This document shows, in pieces, positions 10,656 to 51,347 of a stretch of 64,000 nt of DNA (the first letter of the stretch is position 1; each line of letters begins with the position of its first letter). The position numbers and the translations under genes were made by a program. The notes under the pieces were generated by a model. That model searched no databases and was not told where the DNA came from. It saw only the letters and a list, made by a program, of their open reading frames with translations. Source of the DNA: a virus (lineage: Duplodnaviria > Heunggongvirae > Uroviricota > Caudoviricetes); the IMG/VR virus record IMGVR_UViG_3300045988_151230; one strand, 5' to 3'.

Positions 10656-11246
10656 CTATTTATTATAAACAAAACCAATATCTTTCTTGTGAGGCATATC
10701 TGCTGCTGAAAAAGCTGCGATCTTCGCGAGTCGATCACATATTTCATTTTCACGATGCCCGGCGTGACCTTTAACCCACTTCCAGCGAACATTATGTCGA
10801 CTTGCGGCCTCATCCAGACGCTTCCACAGATCAACATTCTTTACCGGTTTTTTGTCAGAAGTCATCCATCCATTGCGTTTCCACCATTTCATCCACTGTG
10901 TCATGCCGTTTTTCAGATACTGGCTATCAGAGTGCAAAATAACGTTGCATGGATATTTCAAACGCTCCAGCCCGATAAGTGCCCCCATCATCTCCATGCG
11001 GTTATTGGTGGTGCTATGAAAACCATCTGAGAACTCGCGTTCCTCACCACGATACTGGAGAACGATACCGTAACCGCCCGGGCCACCCGGATTTTTAAGG
11101 CAAGAGCCATCACTAAAGATTTTCACGGTTTTAAGCTGGGGATTGAACTCTACGACAGGCGTTGTGGGATTGGTGCGGGGGGAATTTTTGTTTTTGGCTT
11201 TTTTGCGAGTTTTTGCTTGCGATCGGGCTGGTGTCTTCGTCGTCAT
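10656..11246 (-). CDS. rnhA: ribonuclease HI
   Basis: [38 protein letters not shown] motifs; start taken at MTTKTP with AGGAG RBS; basic N-terminal extension. Confidence 0.85.
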
Positions 11247-11831
11247 ATAAACTCCTGAATCAAGCGCCGCGCCGATTTTTCCTCGCGCGTGCGCACACGC
11301 GTGCGTGTTAATAATTATTAAAATAAACAAATTACTTCCCAGAACAGGTTTTTATAAACCTGAACTGAACGAACGAAGTGAGTGAAGTTCACCTCGAACG
11401 AAGTGAGAGGTTGTCTTTTCAGGTAATACTCTCCCAGGGAGGTGAGTATAAAAATCTCTCACCAACCTGGTCGTTTCATAACCTGAAAAGTTATGGTCTA
11501 AGTCTACTGCCAGCTTAGACTTGGGAAGTTATGGATGACAGCACCCCAGAACCGAGATCTTCCCACACTTTATGAAGGGGAGTACTGGATTCAACCTCTC
11601 TAAACACCCCAGACTCGACAATCATAAAGTGACCCTTGTCTCTGCTCACTTTGGTTCCCCCTTCCCCGACACCTAAACGGCACCAGTTCTACGCTGGTAG
11701 TGAGCTTTTTTAAACCTGACGCCAGTGACGCTTACCCCCACCCATCAGGTCGAGTCTCCAGTCTACGACTGGAAACTATCAGATCTTAGCACTTACAATT
11801 CACTTTATGAATAGTTTGTACTTATCTATCA

Positions 11832-12059
11832 TTATGATTGATTATTTTCTCTACCATGTAGTTGAACATTCAAGGCAAACACCTCATTGATCAACTCACC
11901 TAAAAGCTGTTCAACAAGTTCGCGATGCTCGCCAAGATGCAAGCACTTAATTGCCCATTCGTACAAGTTGAAAGCCTGCTCACGATCTTTCATCATTTCA
12001 CGAGCCTGGGCCAGAAAATCGCTCTCTACGAGCGCAACGACATTAGTCGGGTATGACAT
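11832..12059 (-). CDS. hypothetical small protein
   Basis: Start placed at MSYPTNV, which carries the recurring leader CATGTTGGTTTCCTT. Confidence 0.35.
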   Translation of the reverse strand: MSYPTNVVALVESDFLAQAREMMKDREQAFNLYEWAIKCLHLGEHRELVEQLLGELINEVFALNVQLHGRENNQS

Positions 12060-12244
12060 GTTGGTTTCCTTAAAGTGGTTCATAAAATCGATTTTAAAGC
12101 GTCTGGGAAGGGGTTCTAGTGGATTCTGTAGTGATGTTCAGGTCTGGAGTCTCTGATACAAAACAGCCTTCTTCCGTATATTAATAATTAATATGTAGTT
12201 ATTTATATATACAGAAGCAGGCTAATTACAGACACCAGAACAAA

Positions 12245-12838
12245 CTAAGCAGCCTTCTTTGATGGTCTTTTTTTCCTGATCACATTCGCAGGATCATACC
12301 CTCCCAGACTTTTCATGACGTCCAAAGGGATCTTGCTTATAGAGTGCCCAGCGTCCTGACAGAATCCTCGAAAAACAACGAGCATACTGCCACCTGGGTT
12401 GATGTTTACTTCTACCTGACCCAGATTTACGTCAGGCTCGACAAACGCTACGCGGCCACCAGACAGAATAATCGTCTCATTCGCACACTCTGTTGCACGC
12501 TCATACCACTTTGTATCTAGGGATTGAGGAATTAGCATCACTGTTGTAACTCCGCGAGCCTGCTCACGTATAGCCGCATCAATCCAGGGGTAGATTTTGG
12601 AGTAGGGTGGATTGAGGAAGGCAATTGTACCTGGCTGTCCCCATTCAGATTTCAAAGCATCACGCTCAACGCCTATGAAATTAGGCAGCTTTGCATTGTC
12701 CTTGTTGCAGGCAACGTCAACATCAAATGTCACTCCAAGATAACGTTGAATGGCAGAAAACAGCCAGTCAGGTGTTCTCCAGAGGTCACGAAGAGAGTTG
12801 TCGCGCTTTCGCTGTTTGATTTTTTCGGCTGCAATCAT
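12245..12838 (-). CDS. phage-type DNA N6-adenine methyltransferase (Dam-like)
   Basis: 197-aa ORF; WRTPDWLF and FLNPPYS motifs. Confidence 0.75.
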   Translation of the reverse strand: MIAAEKIKQRKRDNSLRDLWRTPDWLFSAIQRYLGVTFDVDVACNKDNAKLPNFIGVERDALKSEWGQPGTIAFLNPPYSKIYPWIDAAIREQARGVTTVMLIPQSLDTKWYERATECANETIILSGGRVAFVEPDVNLGQVEVNINPGGSMLVVFRGFCQDAGHSISKIPLDVMKSLGGYDPANVIRKKRPSKKAA

Positions 12839-13021: not shown

Positions 13022-13831
13022 TCATCCAATAGTGTACTCCGCGACAAACTTCTTAACGATCGGTGATTCTTCGTTCAATGTTAGATTTCCACCGTCTCTA
13101 ACGGCAATTCCTGTCGCTGGAAATACAGCCATCATTTGCCCAGCCTGAGTTGACGCAGTATTAAGCGGATACGGTTTTTCTGGATTGCTCATTAAAGCAA
13201 TCTTAATACTATTACTTGTAGCCTTCTTTTCTGTGAGAAGGTGTCTCATGGAAATTACCGTGTAAACACTAATATCTGGACCTCCGCTAAACCAATTAAG
13301 AAGGTTTAATATCTTATCCTTTGCTTTGACAGGCGCGTTATCGTAAGCGTCTAAGAAAATATCTTTTTCTAAGCCCGCTTTATTGAAAAACGAATCATCT
13401 TTATCACTTAAAGTAAAACGAGGACCTCTTGCAGTACGAGCTTTTTTATTTGTATTGCTATCATTTGACTGTTGAACTTTTAATTCATCATTAACCTCAA
13501 CACACTCTTCAACCTCAATAAATCCCAATTGTTCTGGCTCGTTTTCGGCAGCTTCAACACTTTCAGCGTTAATTACGTTTATAGGCTCATGCGCTAACTC
13601 CAACTCATTTAAAGCAGAGCTGAAATCACCTGCTTTTTCTTCATTGAACAGTTCTTCGGCAACATCATCAGAACTCATGGCTACGCCAGCATCTAGGCCG
13701 AGCAGCAGATCGTCAATATCATCAGTATTTTCAACCTGTGCAGCTTTTTTTACTGGTTCATCAAGTGATTGCAACATGGCTGTCAGCTCGTCCAGATCAT
13801 CATTTGTCATTACATTTTCAACCGAACTCAT
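13022..13831 (-). CDS. hypothetical acidic protein
   Basis: 269-aa ORF rich in D/E. Confidence 0.45.
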   Translation of the reverse strand: MSSVENVMTNDDLDELTAMLQSLDEPVKKAAQVENTDDIDDLLLGLDAGVAMSSDDVAEELFNEEKAGDFSSALNELELAHEPINVINAESVEAAENEPEQLGFIEVEECVEVNDELKVQQSNDSNTNKKARTARGPRFTLSDKDDSFFNKAGLEKDIFLDAYDNAPVKAKDKILNLLNWFSGGPDISVYTVISMRHLLTEKKATSNSIKIALMSNPEKPYPLNTASTQAGQMMAVFPATGIAVRDGGNLTLNEESPIVKKFVAEYTIG

Positions 13832-13988
13832 GTAAGTCTCCTTCTGTTTGGTTACATTTGCGTTTCGATGGCTGCATTTTGACTAAACCTATCAGGCGGA
13901 AAAGTATTAAATACAGGCAGGAAATGATTGAAAGGCGACTGTTCTTTAAAAAAAGCCTACTTTAAACTTTTTAAAGTAGGCTTTTGTT

Positions 13989-14546
13989 TTACACAATTTC
14001 AGAGGGTAATTTAAAAAATCCGTACTTATTACGTGCCTTAAAGAAGCATTGCATCATTAAGTTTGTGTCATATAAGGCACTATGTGCTTTGGCATGATCG
14101 TATATAAAGCCAAGAGAGAAGGCCAACTCTTCAAGGCGGGGACGTTTACCGTCTTCTGTGGCCCACAATCCCGATAACATAGTATCTATAACAGGAACTT
14201 CTGGCAGTCTTACTCCATACCCTGAAAACTCGTGTCGAATAAATGGTATATCAAATGCTTCGCCGTTATGAGCAACCCACACACTACATGCCCCCATATA
14301 AGCGCCAATTTCGCTGGCATGATTTGACAACAAAGGTTCAGCTGCGAGCTGTTCCAATGAAATGCCATGAACGGCTTGAGCTTTCGGATCTATGTTTCTG
14401 CGAGGGTTAAAACGCATCTCCAGACTATCAATATGTCTCTGTGTCTCCAGTTCATAGCGGGTAATTGCGATTTCAATAATTTTATGACCAGCAAGGAAAT
14501 CCAGTCCCGTAGACTCGATATCGATGCCTGCAACAATCGTTGTCAT
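13989..14546 (-). CDS. DnaQ-like 3'-5' exonuclease (DEDDh family)
   Basis: Exo I DIESTG, Exo II HNGEAFDIPF, Exo III HSALYD. Confidence 0.8.
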   Translation of the reverse strand: MTTIVAGIDIESTGLDFLAGHKIIEIAITRYELETQRHIDSLEMRFNPRRNIDPKAQAVHGISLEQLAAEPLLSNHASEIGAYMGACSVWVAHNGEAFDIPFIRHEFSGYGVRLPEVPVIDTMLSGLWATEDGKRPRLEELAFSLGFIYDHAKAHSALYDTNLMMQCFFKARNKYGFFKLPSEIV

Positions 14547-29390: not shown

Positions 29391-29491
29391 TATGCTGTCA
29401 GCGGTAATTGATAGTCTGTCAGCGGTTCACCGTATGCTGCCAACTGTTTTTGGTATTCTGTCAGCGGCAAATCAAGTATGCTGTCAGCGGT
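29391..29491. repeat. iteron array upstream of repA (five copies of about 15 bp, consensus TATGCTGTCAGCGGT)
   Basis: Copies at 29391, 29412, 29432 (degenerate), 29454, 29476. Confidence 0.75.
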
Positions 29492-29511
29492 TGAATGACA
29501 AAGGTGTCCAC

Positions 29512-30606
29512 ATGTCCACAAAAAATAAAAAAGGTAAAAATAACAAAGAAGTAGAAGATAACATCGACAACTTTGAAGAAGGTTCCCTTGAATTGTACAC
29601 AGGGGAACTTGTCCCTAATAGCAACAATACAGTCCAACCAATTGCGTTGATGCGACTGGGGTTGTTCGTCCCCACGCTTAAGGGAACAAAATACAGTAAA
29701 CGTAACAAGCCAAATGAGATCGATGCTTCAAAGGAGCTTGTCCAGCTCGAAGTAGCCCGTTCTGAAGGCTATTCCGATATCAAGATAACCGGTCCTCGTC
29801 TCGACATGGATCATGATTTCAAAACGTGGGTGGGCGTTGTGCGTTCGCTGGCAGAATACGGCGAACCTAACGGTCGTGTCGAGTTAAGCATCACGAAATT
29901 TGCTAAGTTTTGTGGCTATCCATCGTCACAGATCCGCAAAACACTCCGCGACCGGCTTACAAACAGTCTTTTGAAGATCATGCGTACAACTCTGTCTTTC
30001 CAGAGAACGTATGAAGAAAAGAACGTCGACGGCTCTAACAAGATCTCGCTTCTGATGGTGCACCTCATCAATAGCGTGGACTACAACGAGCAGAAAGATA
30101 CGGTGGTGTTCTATGCAGAACCGAAGCTGGCCGAACTATATCGCTTTGACCATAAGGTTCTTTTGCAGTTAAAGGTTATCAATAAGCTACCACGCAAAGA
30201 AACAGCACAGGCTCTGTACACCTTCATCGAAAGTCTTCCAACCAAGCCTGCGCCGGTATCGCTTGCTCGATTGCGTGCGCGACTCAATTTGAGTAGCAGG
30301 AATGTCAGCTCGCAGAATCAGACTATACGTAACGGCTTAAAAGCTCTCCAAGATTTGGGCTATCTCGAATACAGCGAGATTAAGCGTGGGCGGTCGATCT
30401 ATATCCAGATTCACAGCCGCAATCCAAAACTCAAAGTCGCACCGCCAAAACCTGAAGACATCGAACCCAAAAAACCAGATGAGAAAGCTGGGGAAATTGA
30501 TGCCAAACAGAACATTATCAACAAGATAACCGAACTTTCGCAGAATTTGACGCCTGAAAATATCAAGATGATTGAGATCCTTTCCAATAGTCTCAAACTG
30601 CTTTGA
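29512..30606 (+). CDS. repA: iteron-type plasmid replication initiator
   Basis: 364-aa plus-strand ORF flanked by matching iterons on both sides; start moved to MSTKNKK downstream of the iterons. Confidence 0.7.
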   Translation: MSTKNKKGKNNKEVEDNIDNFEEGSLELYTGELVPNSNNTVQPIALMRLGLFVPTLKGTKYSKRNKPNEIDASKELVQLEVARSEGYSDIKITGPRLDMDHDFKTWVGVVRSLAEYGEPNGRVELSITKFAKFCGYPSSQIRKTLRDRLTNSLLKIMRTTLSFQRTYEEKNVDGSNKISLLMVHLINSVDYNEQKDTVVFYAEPKLAELYRFDHKVLLQLKVINKLPRKETAQALYTFIESLPTKPAPVSLARLRARLNLSSRNVSSQNQTIRNGLKALQDLGYLEYSEIKRGRSIYIQIHSRNPKLKVAPPKPEDIEPKKPDEKAGEIDAKQNIINKITELSQNLTPENIKMIEILSNSLKLL

Positions 30607-30723
30607 TATGCTGTCAGCGGTGAAATGTATGCTATCAGCGGCTATTTTTCTGAAAAGTATGCTGTGAACGGTTAAAGATATGCTACCAGCGGTATAGTGA
30701 GATGAACGTATGCTGTGAGCGGT
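30607..30723. repeat. iteron array downstream of repA, cluster 1 (five copies)
   Basis: Copies of (T)ATGCT(G/A)(T/C)(C/G)A(G/A)CGG(T/C) starting at the repA stop. Confidence 0.75.
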
Positions 30724-30882
30724 AAATCATCTATCACCACTCAATGCTCTGTCATACCTCCCCAGTGGTTACTAACCTCGAAGAGTGCATTCCATATAGG
30801 TTTGCGCTCACTAACATTCTATTGCTATTGCGCTGATTGCTTGTAGTGAAAGGCATTTATTGCCTGCTACTCCCTGATAGAA

Positions 30883-31137
30883 CGTATGCTGTCAGCGGTG
30901 TTTTATTGAGGAATTTTTGTTTGGATATGCTATCAGCGGTAATTAATGGCATATGTCAGACATTCGTATGCTGCCAGCGGTAATTTTGTTCTGGTTATAC
31001 CCATACCGGTACACATTATTCATGCAATGTCTTAAGTATGCTGTCAGCGGTAAAAAATCGAGTAAAGTATGCTGTGAGCGGTGAGATAGACTCTCGATAT
31101 GCTATCAGCGGTAGTTGATTGTGTATGCTGTCAGCGG
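30883..31137. repeat. iteron array downstream of repA, cluster 2 (seven copies)
   Basis: Copies at 30883, 30924, 30965, 31035, 31065, 31096, 31121. Confidence 0.75.
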
Positions 31138-31185
31138 TGACGACTATGAAATATGACTGCGGAACGTGCCGCAGTCAGTTTGCAT

Positions 31186-50796: not shown

Positions 50797-50883
50797 TGGC
50801 GGAGAGTAATGGAATCGAACCATCATCGCTTGCGCAATGGGACGGTTTTCAAGACCGCTTGAGCACCATGCTCCCTACTCTCC
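50797..50883 (-). tRNA. tRNA-Ser (anticodon UGA), class II with long variable arm
   Basis: GGAGAGT/ACTCTCC acceptor stem, anticodon loop CTTGAAA, T-loop TTCGATT, encoded CCA. Confidence 0.8.
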
Positions 50884-51100
50884 AATTGTTGTGGTTACCG
50901 GTACTGATCTCCGGCTTAGCGACCCCGGCTACTGACTGCATTGCAGTGTGTGAACTCGCCTCGTGTGTCGCTGGGGCATTTCTTTCCGCGCATCAGTCTG
51001 CGCATCAACCACAACGAAAAGAGCACTGTATGACGTTTGCACGGACTTACGCTTAAAACAGGGCAGTCTCGGCGGTTTTCAATGCTCTTTCCTGTTGTGT

Positions 51101-51176
51101 TGGTGCCGGTTAACGGACTCGAACCGCTGACATCCTGCTTACAAGGCAGGCGCTCTACCAACTGAGCTAAACCGGC
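51101..51176 (-). tRNA. tRNA-Thr (anticodon UGU)
   Basis: GCCGGTT/AACCGGC acceptor stem, D-arm GCTCAGTTGGTAGAGC, anticodon loop CTTGTAA, encoded CCA. Confidence 0.85.
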
Positions 51177-51180
51177 AATT

Positions 51181-51267
51181 TGGTGGGGAGTGATGGAGTC
51201 GAACCACCCGAGTCGCAATGACAGTAGATTTACAGTCTACACCGCTACCTCTACGGACTAACTCCCC
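51181..51267 (-). tRNA. tRNA-Tyr (anticodon GUA), class II
   Basis: GGGGAGT/ACTCCCC acceptor stem, anticodon loop CTGTAAA, long variable arm, T-loop TTCGACT, encoded CCA. Confidence 0.8.
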
Positions 51268-51272
51268 TAAAT

Positions 51273-51347
51273 TGGCGATGGTGGGTGGATTCGAACCACC
51301 GACCAGTTGGTTAACAGCCAACTGCTCTACCGCTGAGCTACACCATC
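51273..51347 (-). tRNA. tRNA-Asn (anticodon GUU)
   Basis: GATGGTG/CACCATC acceptor stem, anticodon loop CTGTTAA, T-arm GGTGGTTCGAATCCACC, encoded CCA. Confidence 0.85.

Follow-up and report, generated by a model that had tools for sequence, protein, structure and literature searches.

A probable large structured RNA gene conserved among SSU5-like phage-plasmids

We analysed a 64,000-nucleotide stretch of viral DNA (IMG/VR record IMGVR_UViG_3300045988_151230; hereafter the window) and found that the interval between its RNase HI gene (rnhA) and a small protein gene very probably holds a minus-strand gene for a structured RNA of about 445 nucleotides (nt). The RNA is predicted to form at least 10 helices and a long-range pseudoknot, and it appears to represent a new family that matches none of the described ones. 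The window itself is, judged by its sequence, an SSU5-like phage-plasmid: its best matches are Escherichia phage CMS-2020a (99.5% identity), PhiR41_1 and Cyrano (pLF82) (97–98%) and Salmonella phage SSU5 (87%). On balance we lean towards the view that the RNA is an independent, stable, trans-acting RNA gene and a core component of these elements.

Secondary structure and strand of the RNA

A sequence-only reading of the window had drawn attention to this region as free of open reading frames (ORFs), holding several stable hairpins and possibly a structured non-coding RNA. That last interpretation is strongly supported by covariation, by an asymmetry in wobble pairs, by the lack of a conserved ORF, by conservation above that of the flanks and by published RNA sequencing (RNA-seq) data.

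Covariation was tested on alignments in the minus orientation, with 500 shuffles and with slid partners as controls. For helix P2, 99.2% of the cells were paired and 7 of the 12 pairs had changed on both sides, giving a covariation of 0.381 compared with at most 0.06 for slid partners. In the 3′ 310 nt (P4, P4a, P5, P5a, P6, P7, P8, P10, P11 and the long-range pairing), 93.8% of the cells were paired and 33 of the 76 pairs had changed on both sides, where the shuffles gave 17.9 ± 2.0; here the covariation was 0.323 and the slid partners reached at most 0.105. For P3, the corresponding values were 92.3% paired, three of seven pairs changed on both sides and a covariation of 0.433 (slid partners, at most 0.18). 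The slid controls thus lay 3–6 times below the observed covariation. None of the 500 shuffles matched the observed values for paired cells, double changes or covariation in P2 and the 3′ domain. The same was true of paired cells and covariation in P3, where the number of doubly changed pairs did not rise above the shuffles.

The wobble pairs were markedly asymmetric. When the curated helices were read on the minus strand, G:U occurred in 128 cells (25 pairs) versus only 11 cells (seven pairs) for A:C. An A:C on the minus strand would be a G:U on the plus strand. In the helices predicted on both strands, the minus-strand reading gave 61 G:U versus 6 A:C. The excess of G:U over A:C places the RNA on the minus strand. 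The hairpins noted earlier were also found: 24 inverted repeats were counted, and the region folded better than shuffles on both strands (z = −4.9 for the minus strand and −4.4 for the plus strand, with none of 100 shuffles folding as well).

No ORF of at least 60 amino acids (aa) was present on either strand of 11331–11831 (501 bp), the largest being 46 aa, in agreement with the earlier observation. The accompanying claim that this is the longest ORF-free stretch did not hold, as it is the third-longest in the window, exceeded by 2205–2796 (592 bp) and by 30607–31185 (579 bp), which contains the iteron origin described below. The first of these gaps, flanked by a 208-aa ORF and a UmuD-like gene, has a 20-nt repeat (2391–2410 and 2564–2583). 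A protein-coding frame was also sought in homologous sequences, and no ORF kept its frame or extent across lineages; the 44-aa ORF annotated as CYRAN_81 in Cyrano is truncated or absent in the Enterobacter, Klebsiella and JZ38 relatives.

A search of the whole window with Rfam 15 at gathering score gave only three tRNAs at 51.1–51.3 kb. When matches with E up to 10 were allowed for 11000–12300, only chance microRNA and small nucleolar RNA matches far below threshold were seen, and there was no Rfam match on the homologous loci that we designated L003, L167, L168 and L169. A tRNA/tmRNA scan found none in the RNA region, the PGAP annotation is blank over it, and no account of the element or its sequences turned up in literature searches. 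The window has four clustered minus-strand tRNA genes (Ser-tga, Thr-tgt, Tyr-gta and Asn-gtt) at 50797–51347.

The positions of the predicted RNA, its helices and its neighbours are collected in Table 1.

Table 1. Coordinates of the predicted RNA, its parts and the adjacent genes in the window
Feature	Position	Strand	Evidence or remark
Whole predicted RNA, about 445 nt	11332–11777	minus	5′ end inferred from promoter; homology, structure tests, RNA-seq signal
−35-like hexamer TTCATA, 17-nt spacer	11806–11811	minus	read from sequence and upstream alignment
Extended −10 TGcTAAGAT	11783–11791	minus	GTGnTAAnAT kept in clades 1 and 2; alignment
P1, 11-bp hairpin at predicted 5′ end (+1)	11753–11777	minus	at least 13 sequence versions, all fold
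P2, 12-bp helix with GG bulge and conserved G-rich strand GAUGGGUGGRGG	11714–11750	minus	covariation
P3 domain: closing GCUCACU/AGUGAGC, inner hairpin, invariant unpaired ACCAGCG and GGGGAAGGGGGAACCAAAG	11644–11705	minus	
P4 (10 bp) and P4a hairpin	11566–11631	minus	P4: 6 of 10 pairs changed on both sides
P5 and P5a, conserved internal loop GAUCUCGGUUCUG	11522–11565	minus	100% paired; 3 of 7 and 2 of 5 pairs changed on both sides
P6 hairpin, loop CUGGCAGU	11496–11520	minus	99.4% paired; 8 of 10 pairs changed on both sides
P7 hairpin	11477–11495	minus	98% paired; 2 of 6 pairs changed on both sides
P8 hairpin (CCAGG..GGUGAG / CUCACC..CCUGG)	11434–11470	minus	94.1% paired; 3 of 11 pairs changed on both sides
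CAACCUCUC, long-range partner of P4a loop (pseudoknot LR)	11405–11413	minus	94.7% paired
Twin 3′ hairpins P9 (weak) and P10, both with loop motif UCAC..CUUCGUUCG	11361–11410	minus	CGAACGAAGTGAG repeats, opposite strand
3′ end region: variable hairpin P11, then conserved UUCUGGGAAGUAA	11332–11360	minus	P11 only 54.7% paired
3′ flank: AT-rich spacer, 25-nt tract, CCTCGCGCG (11281–11289)	11281–11331		kept with RNA in all clades
rnhA (RNase HI)	10656–11246	minus	Pfam RNase_H; downstream of RNA in window
Small helical protein gene, 75–83 aa, phrog_5343 (83 aa in window)	11832–12083	minus	always immediately upstream of RNA

A tertiary feature is the long-range pairing (LR) between the P4a apical loop, which carries GAGAGGUUG (11592–11600), and the segment at 11405–11413. 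The pair GAGAGGUUG/CAACCUCUC becomes GAGAGUUUG/AAACUCUC in L167 and UUGGGUUUUG/CAAAACCCAA in L169. As the changes on one side are matched by those on the other, the pseudoknot covaries, and it does so across the three clades. P4a itself was found in three different sequence versions. Neither it nor the inner P3 hairpin, whose register is ambiguous, could be scored by column, as the clades differ in their MAFFT register. In L167, P3 has lost one base pair, with both sides gone. Nearly every member of clades 1 and 2 (defined below) retains the CUGGCA loop of P6; L169 does not.

The twin 3′ hairpins account for the repeats that had been described as tandem. The 13-mer CGAACGAAGTGAG does occur twice exactly (11370–11382 and 11395–11407), but the copies are 25 nt apart and hence not tandem; on the minus strand, they form the loops of two adjacent 3′ hairpins. 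By our estimate, an exact 13-mer repeat would arise by chance within 490 bp with a probability of about 0.002. The stems of these hairpins covary (UGAACU/AGUUCA, GAAACC/GGUUUC and CAAACC/GGUUUG) and the loops keep UCAC..CUUCG(U/C)UCG. P10 was 100% paired, with three of its six pairs changed on both sides and a conserved loop. P9 showed no covariation and competes with LR, and two further alternatives (P12, and the P7 loop with 11415–11427) were likewise compatible with the sequence and lacked covariation. The palindrome GTGAAGTTCAC (11382–11392) and the three AACCTGA copies (11357, 11480 and 11713) are present as had been reported. Neither is kept as a motif in the divergent clades and they fall in different helices (the palindrome in a P10 arm, the AACCTGA copies in arms of P11, P7 and P2), so that as motifs they are coincidental.

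At the 5′ side, a promoter homologous to that in Table 1 was called by scan in L169 (TTTACT-17-TATGAT, the −10 being TATGAT); the window's own site scores 8/12 and was not listed by the scan. A dyad at ~11811–11829 (GGTAAGTACTTACC in SSU5) follows directly after the stop of the 83-aa ORF and overlaps the −35 of the RNA promoter. Its symmetry is kept while its sequence changes between clades, and it might act as an operator or terminate the upstream gene. At the 3′ side, a small hairpin (CCY-NUUCU-GGG) with a U-rich tail may be a weak terminator; this hairpin was called terminator-like in the JZ38 plasmid, where a strong terminator precedes the next gene.

The 3′ flank includes a 25-nt perfectly alternating pyrimidine–purine tract (11284–11308) that we judged to be Z-DNA-prone. 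Between the RNA and the following gene, CGCGCGAG plus an A-run is kept in all clades regardless of what that gene is, and it is unique in the window. We had considered CGCGCGAGG as a repeated regulatory motif and rejected it, as it too is unique in the window.

The locus lies inside a long block of minus-strand genes that includes RNR, ThyA, DHFR, a Pol III epsilon-like exonuclease, Dam and RNase HI. In the phage-plasmid RNase HI, the RNase_H domain is preceded by a basic N-terminal extension of ~40 aa, the Pfam match beginning at residue 40. For the 83-aa protein, neither a Pfam domain nor a PDB sequence match was found, and its AlphaFold2 three-helix model gave no fold match; it belongs to a PHROG of unknown function. 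The association of its gene with the RNA is one of synteny only.

Distribution, conservation and expression in lysogens

The core of the RNA (11308–11754) was present in 687 PLSDB plasmids from Klebsiella, Escherichia, Enterobacter, Salmonella, Citrobacter and Cronobacter, mostly at 80–99% identity. It was also found in 232 of 5426 complete E. coli genomes (4.3%), with nothing annotated under it. Compared with the window, the RNA region is 91.5% identical in Klebsiella and 92.4% identical in Salmonella SSU5, and rnhA, the 83-aa ORF and Dam are 75–78% identical; coding DNA nearby (13022–14546) is just 60–80% identical in 541 of 717 plasmids. The RNA evolves roughly three times more slowly than its neighbours.

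Divergent relatives were reached through a 67%-identity match in Cronobacter sp. JZ38 and through contigs fetched with the small neighbouring protein. These fell into three clades: the SSU5 clade, including L167 (79% identical to the window); the JZ38 clade (~60%); and L169 (~51%; nhmmer score 57.6 bits). In all clades, the homology found by nhmmer and BLAST spans 11332–11777. One further contig (L170, Logan SRR8137545) reads as a C-to-T converted (bisulfite-like) assembly of the locus and was left out of the alignments. A protein-based locus search of genome contigs gave no matches, and a pattern scan of them gave two Kluyvera phage-plasmids and about 40 unrelated matches. Roughly half of the latter were coincidental, falling in the P-loop of a gene that we take to be prkA-like. 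A restricted scan of viral contigs found nothing beyond the Klebsiella clade, and a metagenome scan for clade 3 relatives gave no matches. In L168 (Logan SRR28417476), where the small protein is 70% identical, the slot of the RNA is filled by an unrelated ORF-free sequence of ~470 nt (2745–3215) that has no nhmmer match to this RNA yet folds very well (z = −5.6). Possibly another kind of RNA module occupies the slot in this relative, a hint that such modules can be exchanged.

Evidence that the region is expressed comes from the published RNA-seq data for E. coli LF82, whose phage-plasmid Cyrano is 97% identical to the window over the RNA locus. CYRAN_81, annotated there as a 44-aa "hypothetical protein", falls inside the RNA (window ~11516–11650) (PMC9928086). 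Its signal in LB is 12 times the prophage background, and it is classed there with the "morons" (PMC9928086, Table 1). The log2 values for fragments per kilobase per million (fpkm) of CYRAN_81 were 6.8–6.9 in LB stationary phase, 9.0–9.3 in B1 and 6.9 in B6, and in macrophages they rose from 8.2–9.0 at 1 h to 10.3 at 6 h, the highest level seen (maximum 10.35; PMC9928086, S1). The flanking CYRAN_80 and CYRAN_82 (RNase H) gave only 2.6–5.8 (PMC9928086, S1). From the RNA to rnhA the signal dropped roughly 14-fold in LB and by up to about 45-fold in macrophages (values from PMC9928086). In the same table, another small "hypothetical protein", CYRAN_43 (OV696614), stands at 723 times the prophage background and may be another RNA or a toxin gene (PMC9928086).

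The downstream slot, the replication origin and other explanations

The position beside rnhA had been taken as a hint of a second, RNA-primed origin. In this explanation, modelled on ColE1 RNA II or on the T4 R-loop type and perhaps serving lytic growth, the RNA would form a persistent hybrid in the downstream AT-rich stretch, which RNase HI would cut to yield a primer. The arrangement fits, with a promoter, then a folded RNA of ~445 nt and then an AT-rich stretch of ~30 bp. Conserved strands of the RNA are G-rich, rnhA is the next gene downstream in the SSU5 clade, L169 and L171, and to our knowledge the lytic origin of SSU5-like elements is unmapped. ColE1 RNA II, at about 550 nt, is similar in having hundreds of nucleotides, a conserved fold, an RNase H link and an AT-rich stretch after the RNA.

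However, the adjacency of rnhA is not conserved, since RNase HI is absent from the downstream position in JZ38, L172, L173, L174 and L175. A Tad2-like gene (Pfam PF11195) follows the RNA in JZ38 and L172, and in L173 and L175 the position is held by a gene for a 196–207-aa protein that lacks any Pfam domain. In Buttiauxella it is taken by a UvrD-like helicase gene that runs convergently, and of rnhA itself just a stub of the start persists. The slot is therefore a cargo hotspot and RNase HI no fixed partner. (The slot occupies 2458–2769 in L003, 2438–2743 in L172, 2345–2935 in L173 and 2395–3231 in L174; Tad2 is a Thoeris anti-defence protein.) The plasmid also has an origin elsewhere, at 29.4–31.2 kb, where a Rep3/WH1 initiator gene (29392–30606, plus strand) is followed by at least 11 iterons TATGCTGTCAGCGGT (30605–31158) in the 579-bp ORF-free gap. 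At the RNA locus, there are only the two 13-nt copies, rather than three or more repeats of 17–22 bp, and no rep gene nearby. Cumulative GC skew falls steadily through 10–14 kb with no turn at 11.5 kb, although this evidence is weak because all the genes here share one orientation.

Nor is there a conserved antisense unit of the kind that covers the 5′ ~110 nt of RNA II as RNA I. A plus-strand hairpin with a T6 run (11683–11712) is lost in the JZ38 clade, the wobble pairs fit one strand only, and the one plus-strand promoter-like site found by scan at the 5′ edge (11770–11799; conservation unchecked) is directed away from the RNA body. Finally, unlike a ColE1 primer, the RNA accumulates in lysogens, being abundant in uninduced cells that release few virions. 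Because the downstream gene varies and the iteron origin lies elsewhere, a primed origin is unsupported, and we regard it, including a primer role in lytic replication, as quite unlikely. The sequence-only observations are thus partly confirmed and their interpretation partly supported, as to a structured RNA and not as to an RNase H-linked origin.

The variable slot and the RNA-seq profile also bear on a cis-acting leader, in which processing of a downstream cargo mRNA would leave the RNA as its stable 5′ part, and the RNA would control the expression or stability of that cargo gene. In most lineages the RNA and the gene after it share a strand, no strong terminator was called between the RNA and rnhA in the window, and all clades retain the 3′ flank element CGCGCGAGG. 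Yet the downstream genes are mutually unrelated and one is convergent, a strong terminator stands between the RNA and the Tad2-like gene of the JZ38 plasmid, the signal falls sharply at rnhA (as given above), and 445 nt with a pseudoknotted core is well beyond known leaders. We consider that a leader has little probability.

Another candidate is a base-pairing immunity or regulatory RNA like P1 c4, P4 CI or N15 CA, with the twin loops pairing to two mRNA sites. These RNAs, some 80 nt in length, arise by processing of an operon leader, and their complementary sites lie close by. They resemble the present RNA in being made by a plasmid or prophage in lysogeny and in their repeated short conserved loop sequences. 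Two hairpins here show an identical conserved loop of 9–11 nt, the RNA is expressed in lysogeny, and in SSU5 an anti-repressor gene lies 2 kb downstream. But the RNA is about five times longer, has its own predicted promoter and has no Rfam C4 match. Moreover, a search for complements of the conserved loops and strands in both the window and the remaining 45 kb of the ~108-kb element gave four matches, two of which were the repeats themselves, against 1.4 expected by chance. Such a mode is, in our view, improbable.

A catalytic or self-assembling RNA, i.e. a ribozyme or an RNA-only complex like some large ornate RNAs, would account for the size, the many helices, the pseudoknot, the concentration of invariant nucleotides in junctions and internal loops, and the slower evolution relative to neighbouring genes. 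No similarity to a known ribozyme or large RNA family was found, however; this reading, which overlaps our own rather than excluding it, seems quite unlikely. The last alternative, a DNA-level site (operator array, partition or packaging) or a decaying pseudogene with no RNA function, would explain the direct repeats and dyads, one of which overlaps the −35. The helices are nevertheless maintained by compensatory changes, the G:U over A:C asymmetry is unexpected for duplex DNA, no frame is conserved and the region is transcribed. This possibility is largely refuted and extremely improbable.

A trans-acting RNA and its relation to known systems

We favour an independent trans-acting RNA. In support of an independent unit are the conserved promoter, the terminator-like 3′ site in JZ38 and the variable, once convergent, downstream gene. 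Transcription would start at the conserved extended −10 sigma-70 promoter, the first nucleotides would fold into P1 as a protective 5′ hairpin, and the RNA would end near UUCUGGGAAGUAA through weak termination or processing. The folded core (P2–P8 and the pseudoknot) could then present conserved unpaired elements as binding surfaces, namely the two CUUCG(U/C)UCG loops of the twin 3′ hairpins, the CUGGCA loop and the G-rich strands. The slow change of the RNA and the concentration of its conserved nucleotides in loops and junctions suggest contact with a conserved partner, and the identical twin loops hint at a dimeric protein or at RNA pairing with two sites. As partner, a protein (perhaps a dimer) or an RNA encoded by either the host or the element would be conceivable. 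The RNA would serve as a scaffold, decoy or regulator in plasmid–prophage life, and would be neither a primer nor the leader of the gene that follows. We propose this trans-acting, partner-binding mode only tentatively.

Several points weigh against this proposal. The compensatory changes mostly separate only three clades, so that there are few independent events per pair. The 5′ end, the 3′ end and the strand of the transcript are predicted, and the methods of the RNA-seq study do not state the strandedness of the library (PMC9928086). In the window, the 3′ hairpin is too weak for a terminator call, and read-through into rnhA is therefore possible. No complementary target of at least 11 nt was found elsewhere in the element beyond chance, and the neighbouring 83-aa protein yields no fold or family clue to a partner.

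Among known RNAs, the closest in general form are GOLLD, ROOL, OLE, raiA and HEARO. Like these, the RNA has the descriptive features of an ornate non-coding RNA (a length above 300 nt, no ORF, unpaired nucleotides that are conserved, and many covarying helices together with a pseudoknot), is several hundred nucleotides long and is carried on a mobile or phage element. It matches none of them in sequence or structure: Rfam 15 gave no match at gathering score, and none of these families at E up to 10. Its host range is narrow (phage-plasmids of Enterobacteriaceae), and the tRNAs are 40 kb away rather than adjacent.

As to mechanism, we think that the RNA most likely resembles the protein-sequestering RNAs CsrB/RsmZ and 6S RNA in being stable, acting in trans and presenting repeated loop motifs to a conserved partner. 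It differs from these in having neither a GGA-loop array nor a 6S-like central bubble, only two loop copies and no Rfam match; its loops read UCACUUCGUUC (twice), CUGGCAGU, GAGAGGUUG and others, which is not the pattern of a CsrB/RsmZ sponge. Toxin mRNAs of the hok/sok type are likewise folded plasmid RNAs of ~400 nt with long-range pairing that are abundant in the carrier cell, but here there is no conserved small hydrophobic ORF and no antisense unit. A type III toxin–antitoxin (ToxI-like) arrangement, with tandem RNA repeats of ~36 nt ahead of an endoribonuclease toxin gene, was also looked for; no tandem array was found, and the neighbours are the 83-aa helical protein and variable cargo. 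A stronger claim can be made, that this is a new class of large pseudoknotted RNA, i.e. a core, slowly evolving RNA machine or ribonucleoprotein hub without described precedent, which might sequester a conserved host factor or control the switch between plasmid and lytic states. We think this rather unlikely.

New large structured RNAs are rare in well-studied bacteria. SSU5-like phage-plasmids are common in clinical Enterobacteriaceae, and phage-plasmids have been reported to carry resistance genes. The RNA is better conserved than the replication and nucleotide-metabolism genes of the element and rises in macrophages, and it therefore likely matters for the life of the element in its host. 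With tractable hosts available (E. coli K-12 PhiR41_1 lysogens and LF82), its function is directly testable.

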